The notes under the pieces are model-generated. The model ran no database searches and was not told the origin of the DNA. It saw nothing but the letters and a program-made list of their open reading frames with translations. Both the position numbers and the translations under genes were made by a program. From a virus (lineage: Duplodnaviria; Heunggongvirae; Uroviricota; Caudoviricetes), in the IMG/VR virus record IMGVR_UViG_2548876959_000011: a stretch of 51,013 bases of DNA. The stretch is one strand, 5' to 3'. The first letter of the stretch is position 1. Every line of letters starts with the position of its first letter. Positions 33,204-35,572 of this stretch are shown here, piece after piece.

Positions 33204-34574
33204 GTGCTAATGTCTGCATCCCCTCTTGAATCCATGCCAAATTCCCTTAGTGCAGAACAAGCTGTACTTGGTGGCTTAATGCTTGATAACTGCCGCTGGG
33301 ATGAAGTTGCAGATCGTATAGTTGCTGATGATTTTTATACCAGTGCTCATCGTGAAATTTTCAGTGAGATGGAGAGGTTATTAAGTCATGGCAAACCGAT
33401 TGATTTGATAACACTTGCTGAAGCACTTGAACAGAACGGTAAATTAGAACGCGCCGGTGGTTTTGCGTACCTTGCGGAGATGTCAAAGAACACGCCCAGC
33501 GCGGCAAATATTTGTGCTTATGCGGATATCGTTCGTGAACGCGCGGTTGTTCGTGAAATGATTTCCGTCGCAAATGAAATAGCCGAAGCTGGATATGCGC
33601 AGGATGGCAGGGGCAGCAATGAATTGCTGGATATGGCCGAGCGCCGCGTTTTTGAAATAGCTGAAAAACGACAAAAGAGCGGTAGTGGTCCAAAAGATAT
33701 CGCCAGCATTCTCGATGCAACGGTATCTCGCATAGAAGAGTTGTTTCAGCGACCACATGATGGTGTAACGGGGCTTGATACGGGATTTACCGATCTCAAT
33801 AAGAAGACGGCAGGGCTTCAGCCGTCCGATCTCATCATTGTCGCCGCCCGCCCATCTATGGGGAAGACCACGTTTGCGATGAATCTCGTCGAAAATGCTG
33901 CAGTTCGTAACGATAAGCCCGTATTGGTTTTTAGCCTTGAGATGCCGAGCCACCAGCTGATGATGCGCTCACTGGCTTCTCTTGCACGCGTTGATCAGAC
34001 TCGTATTAGAACGGGGCAACTTAACGACGATGATTGGGCGCGGGTTTCTGGCGCAATGGGGATTCTGTTGGACAAGCAGAATATTTTTATTGATGACTCA
34101 AGCGCCCTGACACCTACAGAGCTTCGTTCCCGCGCTCGTCGTGTTTATAAAGAAAATGGTGGTTTGAGCATGATTATGATCGACTACCTGCAACTTATGC
34201 GCGTCCCCGAGCTGCAAGATAACCGAACGCTGGAAATTGCCGAGATTTCTCGCTCACTGAAGGCGTTGGCGAAGGAATTACAAGTACCGGTGGTGGCATT
34301 GTCACAACTTAATCGATCGCTTGAACAGCGTGCGGACAAACGACCGGTAAATTCAGATTTACGTGAATCAGGAGCAATTGAGCAGGACGCAGACCTGATT
34401 ATGTTTCTGTATCGCGACGAAGTTTATCACCCGGATAGCGAAATGAAGGGCATTGCCGAGGTAATTATCGGAAAGCAACGAAATGGCCCAATTGGCACGG
34501 TGAGATTGGCTTTTAACGGCCAATACTCACGGTTTGATAACTATGCCGGTGCTGACTGGCAAGAGGATTATTAA
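33204..34574 (+). CDS. ban: Ban, DnaB-like replicative helicase
   Basis: 456-aa ORF; Walker A ARPSMGKTTFAMN; DnaB-family N-terminal motifs (EQAVLGGLMLD). Confidence 0.9.
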   Translation: MLMSASPLESMPNSLSAEQAVLGGLMLDNCRWDEVADRIVADDFYTSAHREIFSEMERLLSHGKPIDLITLAEALEQNGKLERAGGFAYLAEMSKNTPSAANICAYADIVRERAVVREMISVANEIAEAGYAQDGRGSNELLDMAERRVFEIAEKRQKSGSGPKDIASILDATVSRIEELFQRPHDGVTGLDTGFTDLNKKTAGLQPSDLIIVAARPSMGKTTFAMNLVENAAVRNDKPVLVFSLEMPSHQLMMRSLASLARVDQTRIRTGQLNDDDWARVSGAMGILLDKQNIFIDDSSALTPTELRSRARRVYKENGGLSMIMIDYLQLMRVPELQDNRTLEIAEISRSLKALAKELQVPVVALSQLNRSLEQRADKRPVNSDLRESGAIEQDADLIMFLYRDEVYHPDSEMKGIAEVIIGKQRNGPIGTVRLAFNGQYSRFDNYAGADWQEDY

Positions 34575-35572
34575 TGCAATGGAATGAGGAAAAGCCGATG
34601 AACATCCTGATCATTGGGCGAAAATTTGCAGCCATCAGTGATGTGAAAACATATACGGAAATGTGGTCTTATAACCTGGCCTGCGCCTTTAGTGAGGCAG
34701 GGGTAACATTGCAATACCATCGTCCATATTCCCCTGGCGTCGAAAGCCCCGAGGATTATGTTGAAGCTGTGTTGACTGCTGCGACAGCATGTTCTGCGAA
34801 GGCCATTTTGGCACCAGGATTGAGGTATTTTACTACGGTACCCAGGGAAATAGGCATGCAACTGTGTCGCCGATTCTCTGGATGGGTAGCCCAGGTATAT
34901 GACGGTTCTATGCTGGATTCGGCACCAGTCGATATTACTTTTACTGTCCGCGATGATACCTGGCGGTACCTGGATAATCCCGGTCGGTTAGAACGTCATA
35001 ATCGCTTTAACAAACATGTTGGATGGGCAGCGAATCAGGAGCTGTTCCATCTGGAAACCAAAACGGACGATGTTCTGCGTATTTTTGTAGACCACGCTGC
35101 ATTTGATGTTAGTGGTTTTGATCACTCCTTAAGTATCCTTATGAACCTTCAGCGTCTGACCGTTCCGTATGAGGCCAGAACGTTGACTGATGACGGATTG
35201 GTTACCATTGATCCGGGGAATATTTCGGTAACTCCATACAGGCGGACGCCGGTGCCAGCAACCGAATTTGCAGCTGAATTGCGTAAGAGTGACGTTTTTA
35301 TCGTTACGCATCCCGAAAGCCTTGGATTAACTGTTCTTGAGGCGGCAATGTGTGGGGCGTTGGTATTAACGCCTCCCGATTGCCTTCCGCCAGATCGCCT
35401 GGCTTTGGTGAACCATATGGTTATCAAGTCGCGGATTGATTGGGATGAGGTTATTGCTCGCGTTGATCGCGTGAAAAATGCTGAAAAGGTCCAGTGTCAC
35501 ACCTGGTCGGCAATTGCGGAAAAGATGCTTGAGACGTTTATCACGCAGAAACCGTCGCGCGGTAACGGATAA
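34574..35572 (+). CDS. GT-B-type glycosyltransferase-like protein (P1 dbn position)
   Basis: 332-aa ORF; motif HPESLGLTVLEAAMCGALVL resembles the GT1 family E-x7-E region; alternative start MNILIIG at 34598. Confidence 0.45.
   Translation: MQWNEEKPMNILIIGRKFAAISDVKTYTEMWSYNLACAFSEAGVTLQYHRPYSPGVESPEDYVEAVLTAATACSAKAILAPGLRYFTTVPREIGMQLCRRFSGWVAQVYDGSMLDSAPVDITFTVRDDTWRYLDNPGRLERHNRFNKHVGWAANQELFHLETKTDDVLRIFVDHAAFDVSGFDHSLSILMNLQRLTVPYEARTLTDDGLVTIDPGNISVTPYRRTPVPATEFAAELRKSDVFIVTHPESLGLTVLEAAMCGALVLTPPDCLPPDRLALVNHMVIKSRIDWDEVIARVDRVKNAEKVQCHTWSAIAEKMLETFITQKPSRGNG

Follow-up and report, generated by a model that had tools for sequence, protein, structure and literature searches.

The window considered here, a 51,013-nucleotide (nt) stretch of DNA (IMG/VR record IMGVR_UViG_2548876959_000011), is by its sequence a P1-like phage-plasmid and contains the dbn gene, an open reading frame (ORF) of 332 amino acids (aa) at 34574..35572 on the + strand, just as an earlier preliminary description of this DNA had placed it. 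The gene order of the window is that of phage P1, with dmt, three tRNA genes, tciABC, ban and dbn, genes 5, 6, 24, 7, 25 and 26 on the other strand, and then pmgL-pmgQ, and the gene directly upstream of dbn is ban (33204..34574, + strand), which encodes a DnaB-type replicative helicase. The window gene is 99.6% identical at the nucleotide level to P1 dbn ('downstream of ban') over its full length (999 nt), and the same gene is found in 18 P1-like phage records at 96-99.8% nucleotide identity over all 999 nt. Phage P1 Dbn (P1_gp078, YP_006544), Glt of phage P7 and the RCS47 protein represent the same gene in the same place after ban and with the same convergent gene 5, and the window allele differs from the P1 reference at ~0.4% of nucleotides and in nothing material. 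The preliminary description proposed that the product is glycosyltransferase-like, which restates the standing annotation, as the P1 record already carries the label 'function unknown, possible glycosyltransferase', the P7 record names the gene glt, a 'putative glycosyltransferase', and RefSeq describes the RCS47 protein as a 'glycosyltransferase family 4 protein'. The assignment of dbn as a possible glycosyltransferase is thus already known and, as written, not new.

The junction between ban and dbn reads ...gattatTAATGcaatgg... and includes the sequence TAATG, in which the ban stop codon TAA (34572-34574) and the dbn ATG (34574-34576) have one base in common, and this junction is retained in 65 of the 67 P1-like alleles of the same length. 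The overlap of the two genes noted earlier is therefore real for the annotated start, but the functional start of dbn may instead lie at 34598, at the ATG encoding Met9, which would yield a product of 324 aa and remove the overlap with ban. This position is a credible alternative because the Met9 equivalent (MKILIIG...) is the start in all non-P1 homologues and in 8 of 80 P1-like contigs, where the gap between ban and dbn is filled by a 101-aa ORF and dbn begins at the Met9 equivalent after an AAGGAG Shine-Dalgarno sequence. In the window the Met9 ATG has the sequence GAGG 8 nt upstream. The inserted 101-aa ORF (L077 9699-10004, also present in contigs L078-L081 and L083-L085) has no Pfam match and takes the place of the TAATG junction.

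The motif that had been described as GT-B-like, HPESLGLTVLEAAMCGALVL, corresponds to residues 246-265 of Dbn (35309..35368, + strand) and contains the E-x7-E signature of retaining glycosyltransferases of family GT4, with E248 encoded at 35315-35317 and E256 at 35339-35341. Both glutamates are invariant in an 18-sequence alignment together with H246, S249, G251 and G261, and the H, E, G, E and G positions are still invariant across 70 family members that share 26-55% identity. When compared with the Dbn family profile, MshA, PimA and the Actinobacillus glucosyltransferase 8xsg from the PDB show the same motif at this stretch, and as judged from these alignments the motif is not a chance match. 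Sequence models taken alone are borderline for Dbn as a glycosyltransferase. Pfam Glycos_transf_1 (PF00534) scores 25.0 bits against a gathering cut-off of 26.4 and covers residues 229-315 only, the Pfam models for the Glyco_transf_4 N-terminal domain give no match on Dbn, and neither an NCBIfam scan nor a single-sequence PDB search with Dbn returned a useful match. PHROGs assigns the protein to a family without a known function; the cluster representative of Dbn, which is 99% identical to it, has a precomputed PF00534 match and is named by NCBI as a member of glycosyltransferase family 4.

The fold predicted for Dbn is GT-B, consisting of two Rossmann-like domains, as in the CAZy GT4-type retaining enzymes, and a glycosyltransferase fold is thus found along with the GT4-type E-x7-E. 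By far the closest viral structural neighbour in BFVD is a 315-aa glycosyltransferase of Tupanvirus soda lake (A0A6N1NPH0; E 6e-18, TM 0.77/0.81, 17% identity), which is structurally much nearer to Dbn than any phage protein in that database. Dbn has no hydrophobic segment, with a maximum 19-residue Kyte-Doolittle mean of 1.53. The dbn allele is intact and of the same length in 67 of 80 P1-like contigs, with pN/pS values against the window allele of 0.08-0.17, and the gene is under purifying selection; these contigs derive from two IMG/VR scans made for diverse contexts from which only P1-like contigs came back, and were reused for the allele statistics. Taken together, Dbn is predicted to be a soluble GT-B protein with an intact E-x7-E nucleotide-sugar site of the retaining GT4 type, and it looks like a functional enzyme.

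The Dbn family is, from profile searches, small and discrete and does not merge with mainstream GT4. A family profile search of 1.84 billion cluster representatives recovered only 377 at E<=1e-3, and the members have invariant motifs specific to the family, TH-x-ES-x-G, DH and GWAAD. The isoelectric points of family members (median 6.7, range 5.2-9.3) are non-discriminating as a proxy for DNA or membrane binding. In some members of 520-630 aa, the Dbn-type domain is fused to an alpha/beta-hydrolase-like or a methyltransferase domain (the Stenotrophomonas jumbo phage RAS14, L197 4590-6248; P0126; P0110 with Methyltransf_11), which suggests further modification of the glycan in those systems. 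The Colwellia homologue is in two pieces, an N-terminal part of 63 aa and a C-terminal part of 233 aa, in all contigs seen (L171 8168-8359 and 8456-9157; L172 3949-4140 and 4237-4938), and may represent a pseudogene or an assembly frameshift.

The preliminary description attached functional meaning to the position of dbn immediately after the helicase gene and to its co-expression with replication functions. This rationale does not hold up, as the adjacency of ban and dbn occurs only in P1-like elements and is broken in 10% of them, and no Dbn homologue lies beside a helicase in the loci examined outside the P1 lineage. The overlap with ban is dispensable even within the lineage, since the 101-aa ORF separates the two genes in the eight contigs mentioned above, and the position of dbn after ban is incidental, an accident of gene order in the P1 lineage. 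What Dbn homologues have as neighbours are PmgO-, PmgP- and PmgQ-like genes, a grouping that is defined in this analysis as a phage glycosylation module. In the lambdoid metagenomic phages L004, L166 and L167, translational coupling links genes for a PmgO-like and a PmgP-like protein, in some cases a small GT-A-like protein, the Dbn homologue and a PmgQ-like protein, and terS, terL and the portal gene follow shortly downstream on that strand. The four genes of the module also stand side by side in L168 and L169 and in the cultured coliphages EP_H11 (L195) and IME392 (L196), which makes seven contiguous non-P1 loci, the usual order being O-P-(X)-Dbn-Q, and PmgP is directly beside the Dbn homologue in L166, L168, L169, L195 and L196. 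On a 95-kb Citrobacter plasmid and a related contig, PmgM-O-P-Q-PmgS is found ~6 kb from the Dbn homologue, a P1-like spacing, and in the window the three partner genes are likewise on the same replicon as dbn, beginning at 41507, 42067 and 43364. Scanning a narrower family alignment against the genome collection gave three loci only. A search of 50,697 phage records found Dbn in 22 of them, PmgP in 27 and PmgQ in 32, and both partners are present in all 22 records with Dbn. Five others combine PmgP and PmgQ but have no Dbn, which makes Dbn look like an optional added step of a core PmgO/P/Q pathway. Carriers of the module include lambdoid phages, the 111-116 kb sewage coliphages EP_H11 and IME392, jumbo Stenotrophomonas phages and P1. 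A DUF7217 protein (265 bits) is encoded directly upstream of O-P-Dbn-Q in EP_H11 (L195 7196-7903) and IME392 (L196 1196-1903), and the surroundings of the module in these two phages include NAD-dependent DNA ligase, PolX-like and PinA-like genes.

The three partners are all sugar-transferase-like. PmgO (41507..42169, + strand; phrog_4603, weak PF01973) and PmgP (42067..42693, + strand; phrog_2111, a weak MptE-like Pfam match) are both MptE-like/GT42-like, resembling sialyl- or Kdo-transferases, and are distant paralogues with one GT42/MptE-like fold. Their GPS..N..D..GxD motifs are common to the bacterial neighbours of Dbn homologues and to the E. coli KdoIII transferase WaaZ, and a joint PmgO/PmgP profile matches the Campylobacter lipooligosaccharide sialyltransferases Cst-II (E 8e-9) and Cst-I and, weakly, Maf (5mu5) and MptE. 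As GT42-like enzymes, PmgO and PmgP would be expected to use a CMP-activated ulosonic acid; to our knowledge, CMP-Kdo is the sole such donor made by E. coli K-12. PmgQ (43364..44065, + strand; phrog_1962), with DxD, GDQ and FHGxPRPW motifs in its homologue alignment, is predicted to be a GT8-like retaining enzyme of the GT-A fold because its profile matches the GT8 Skp1 alpha-galactosyltransferase 6mw5 (E 8e-6) and LgtC. Between pmgP and pmgQ lies ppp (42675..43367, + strand), encoding a NinI-like Ser/Thr phosphatase (Pfam Metallophos, phrog_246), which is part of the module only in P1-like phages and is not found in the module of other lineages. The pmgO and pmgP frames overlap by 103 nt, as in P1, and in other phages PmgO is shorter and the overlap smaller.

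Bacterial members of the Dbn family are found in a related setting. An MptE/WaaZ-like gene stands directly before the Dbn homologue in Brucella pseudogrignonensis, in Colwellia and in several metagenomic contigs. These loci also hold genes of the ABC2_membrane, ABC_tran, Wzz/KpsE-like and Poly_export types together with further GT1-family transferases, a content by which they are ABC-transporter-dependent polysaccharide loci. A more distant member is flanked by genes for a GT1-family enzyme, a DXD sugar transferase and an epimerase. Leaving the acceptor aside, the statements on the fold of Dbn and on the module are, taken together, very probably correct.

The regulatory features of the window bear on when dbn would be expressed. 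The bivalent C1 repressor operator Oban of the P1 annotation is found at 30384..30411, with 0 and 2 mismatches in its two halves, and heads the operon of tRNA genes, tciABC, ban and dbn. Across the window, the 17-nt consensus of the C1 operator is matched nine times with <=3 mismatches (at 10990, 12660, 26862, 30384, 30395, 40443, 44067, 44116 and 46208), vs 0.33 expected by chance. Since the operon is headed by a bivalent C1 operator, ban and dbn would be expressed on derepression and not in the lysogen. Oppp, the C1 operator that the P1 annotation places before pmgN, between pmgM and pmgN, was not recovered in the window at <=3 mismatches, and C1 co-regulation of the pmgN-Q block is therefore taken solely from the P1 annotation; the P1 record also lists a late promoter, LPpmgL, upstream of the pmgL-pmgQ block. 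A hairpin with an A-tract and a T-tract at 35593..35619 lies between the stop codons of dbn and the convergent baseplate gene 5 and is likely a bidirectional intrinsic terminator closing the ban-dbn transcript. Its predicted RNA fold has an energy of -17.6 kcal/mol (z = -3.7), and 0 of 200 shuffled sequences were equally stable; a terminator scan missed this hairpin, which was instead confirmed by folding.

Several further observations concern the surroundings. Dmt (28129-30393, + strand) is a 754-aa fusion of a C5-cytosine DNA methyltransferase (PF00145, 127 bits; PCQ and ENV motifs) and a D12 N6-adenine methyltransferase (193 bits; DPPY), and the end of dmt lies 9 nt inside the C1 operator heading the ban-dbn operon. 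The three tRNA genes of this operon (31067-31220 and 32848-32923) encode Asn-GTT, Thr-TGT and a third tRNA with a CAT anticodon, assigned to Met by ARAGORN and to Ile2 in the P1 record. A role of Dbn in tRNA modification, by queuosine glycosylation of the co-operonic tRNA-Asn, was considered and dropped, as polysaccharide loci are the setting of the bacterial homologues and no tRNA genes are linked to the modules of non-P1 phages. The region 46403-49932, after pap, is unlike reference P1 (pmgT/U/V) and has genes for two Ead/Ea22-like proteins (47611-48348 and 49414-49932) as well as several others whose products match no Pfam model, in a gene order that resembles that of the phage-plasmid JL22.

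Because dbn travels with three sugar-transferase genes, and not with a helicase, across unrelated phages, Dbn probably helps to build a sugar chain on something other than DNA. In the reading that we favour, with a probability of about 0.4, Dbn would transfer a sugar from a host nucleotide sugar to a growing oligosaccharide built with PmgO, PmgP and PmgQ, the four enzymes together assembling a short glycan from host nucleotide sugars. This would take place during lytic development, since the ban-dbn operon is C1-repressed, and would extend the host lipid A-core, the core of lipopolysaccharide (LPS), at the cytoplasmic face of the inner membrane, such that the receptor-bearing glycolipid is remodelled during lytic growth. 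Lipid A-core is proposed as the acceptor because the GT4, GT8 and WaaZ-like families build the E. coli LPS core, P1-like phage has no exporter and no sugar-activation genes, the bacterial relatives are found in exported-polysaccharide loci, and P1 adsorbs to the LPS core. The option of a cell-surface receptor as the target, raised in the preliminary description, accordingly fits the gene-context evidence, but an effect in lysogens is less likely than one in lytic growth given the C1-repressed operon behind Oban. A wider and more doubtful proposal is that a portable four-enzyme set (two GT42/WaaZ-like enzymes, the GT4-like Dbn and the GT8-like PmgQ), acting like a small waa locus, rebuilds the LPS core or another envelope glycolipid in lytic growth and thereby masks or alters the phage's own receptor. 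If true, this would be a receptor-remodelling strategy so far undescribed for P1 and would give a function to the long-unassigned pmg genes O, P and Q.

A number of points weigh against lipid A-core extension. Several lipid-acting GT4 enzymes have basic N-terminal domains, in contrast to Dbn, which lacks a membrane-binding feature (the hydropathy maximum is that given above and the N-terminal domain has an isoelectric point of 5.8). No significant profile match was found between Dbn and E. coli WaaS, WaaG or WaaB, although this carries little weight, as hhalign of the family profile against these single sequences (probability <=5%) relies on weak single-sequence templates. Remote relatives of ~420 aa (L179-L186) have no MptE-like neighbour, LPS remodelling late in infection would alter an existing outer membrane only slowly, and the location of the module upstream of terminase and head genes in three lambdoid contigs suits glycosylation of the virion equally well. 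The acceptor is not readable from sequence, and family resemblance alone does not fix it, because phage GT-B and GT8-like enzymes that resemble LPS enzymes are known to glycosylate DNA (10.1101/2023.12.21.572611).

That last precedent lends some weight to an improbable alternative, also raised in the preliminary description, in which Dbn, alone or with PmgO/P/Q, adds sugars to a modified base of phage DNA and so evades nucleases. Phage GT-B enzymes that are BshA/MshA-like and GT8 enzymes that are WaaJ/WaaO-like do put hexose, heptose and Kdo on 5-hydroxymethylcytosine (5hmC) (preprint 10.1101/2023.12.21.572611), and Dmt of P1 has a genuine C5-methyltransferase domain. DNA glycosylation requires, however, a hydroxylated base supplied by a ThyA-like enzyme or by a C5-methyltransferase with TET/5mYOX (PMC13326640; preprint 10.1101/2023.12.21.572611), and this prerequisite, whether a thymidylate-synthase-like hydroxylase or TET/5mYOX, was not found linked to the module or in P1-like records in a search that was annotation-level and not exhaustive. 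ThyA-like or TET-like genes are not annotated in the whole genome of JL22, the first 50 kb of Ro157c2YLVW or P1 66.7-88 kb, and neither a Pfam scan of window ORFs lacking an assignment nor the precomputed Pfam matches near the module in other phages revealed any. In-frame P1 Δdbn, ΔpmgO, ΔpmgP and ΔpmgQ mutants form normal plaques and have the parental efficiency of plating on EcoA, EcoB and EcoK hosts (PMC9024508, Table S3, Fig. S1), so that loss of these genes leaves the restriction phenotype as in the parent, for type I systems only, and wild-type P1 is itself restricted 10- to 1000-fold (PMC9024508). The occurrence of bacterial family members in capsule-type loci likewise points away from DNA. 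Lysogenic conversion, in which prophage-expressed Dbn would alter the O-antigen or LPS of lysogens as in seroconverting phages, is similarly improbable. It shares the surface-glycan chemistry suggested by the family contexts, and the P1 record lists two predicted sigma-70 promoters of dbn within ban, one of which was recovered in the window (33937-33964, 9/12 consensus match). The scan of 5.5 kb that recovered it found 1 promoter-like site where 6.0 are expected by chance and thus gives no evidence for an internal dbn promoter, and the operon starts with the bivalent C1 operator. In addition, the module is present in EP_H11 and IME392 (111-116 kb, with PinA, NAD-ligase and PolX), where the regions read showed no lysogeny genes, and classical seroconversion is carried out by membrane GtrA/GtrB/GtrC or by Wzy/Oac, unlike Dbn with its lack of a membrane segment.

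It is also improbable that Dbn is no transferase in vivo, whether as a degenerate GT-B protein or because it does no more than bind or hydrolyse a nucleotide sugar, which might serve to deplete a precursor pool of the host. GT4 enzymes usually have an Arg/Lys phosphate-binding pair, and this pair is not evident in Dbn, which has the invariant DH and GWAAD motifs instead; the Glycos_transf_1 score just below the cut-off, the lack of a match to the N-terminal GT4 domain model and the absence of a phenotype in the dbn knockout are consistent with this view as well. Against it, the E-x7-E and the surrounding glycines are invariant across the family, pN/pS is about 0.1, and the constant pairing with other transferases points to a step in a pathway. 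Glycosylation of the virion, with Dbn, PmgO, PmgP and PmgQ placing a short glycan on capsid or tail proteins during assembly, is unlikely but has more in its favour than the preceding alternatives. Mycobacteriophages and giant viruses practise virion-protein glycosylation, and the Tupanvirus group, to which the closest viral structural neighbour of Dbn belongs, is known to glycosylate its virions. The position of the module upstream of terS, terL and portal genes on the same strand, the late promoter LPpmgL upstream of the pmgL-pmgQ block and the listing of pmgO-Q (hdmB-D) under 'morphogenetic/head morphogenesis' by the P1 and P7 annotators are in keeping with a role in assembly. The best PDB match of PmgQ, Skp1 alpha-galactosyltransferase, extends a protein-linked glycan, and an MptE-like domain also occurs in Maf flagellin glycosyltransferases, to which the weak 5mu5 match corresponds. 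These points are countered by the bacterial homologues, which are in polysaccharide export and not protein-glycosylation loci, by the normal plaques of the Δdbn and ΔpmgO/P/Q phages, by the text of a P1 virion proteomics study, which makes no mention of glycosylation, and by the position of dbn in the early C1-controlled ban operon with no annotated late promoter.

P1 serves as a standard tool in genetics, P1-like phage-plasmids disseminate resistance genes, and about one third of P1 genes have no assigned function. A CRISPRi screen found dbn, pmgO, pmgP and pmgQ all to be non-essential, and the literature searched contained no functional study of dbn or pmgO/P/Q besides essentiality screens; nor was dbn found grouped with pmgO, pmgP and pmgQ in the searchable literature. 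The annotation of dbn is confirmed and the replication- and DNA-based rationale is weakened. The present analysis adds that the adjacency to the helicase gene is incidental and that dbn groups with pmgO, pmgP and pmgQ as a conserved set of four transferases, which turns four 'unknown/putative morphogenetic' P1 genes into one testable pathway and shifts attention from DNA nucleosides to the LPS core or to glycans of the virion.

The retaining GT4 enzymes BshA, MshA, PimA/PimB', WaaG, WaaB and PglA are 360-400 aa in length, vs ~320 aa for the Dbn family, and share 9-15% identity with it; Dbn differs from this set in its sub-threshold Pfam score, the lack of a match to the Glyco_transf_4 N-terminal domain and its own invariant motifs. 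The clusters that glycosylate 5hmC or 5hoC in DNA (T4 AGT/BGT; methyltransferase, TET and glycosyltransferase combinations; RB69/DLP3 arabinosylation) have a linked base-hydroxylating enzyme, for which no counterpart was found with dbn at the annotation level, and loss of a gene of such a system would be expected to alter restriction sensitivity, whereas loss of dbn does not, as determined for type I systems only. The Gtr seroconversion cassettes of temperate phages (GtrA/GtrB/GtrC) would have phage-borne modification of a surface glycan in common with Dbn, but the Gtr proteins are integral-membrane, prophage-expressed proteins that act in the periplasm with Und-P-glucose, a type to which Dbn, as a predicted soluble GT-B protein encoded in a repressor-controlled operon, does not belong. 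The likeness to the E. coli Waa enzymes is at the family level only and extends across the whole module, as the waa set comprises the same three enzyme families, GT4 (WaaG and WaaB), GT8 (WaaO and WaaJ) and the MptE-like KdoIII transferase WaaZ. PmgO and PmgP align with WaaZ via the GPS..N..D..GxD motifs, and WaaJ is the best match of the PmgQ profile among the Waa proteins (16.6 bits in a seven-sequence test).

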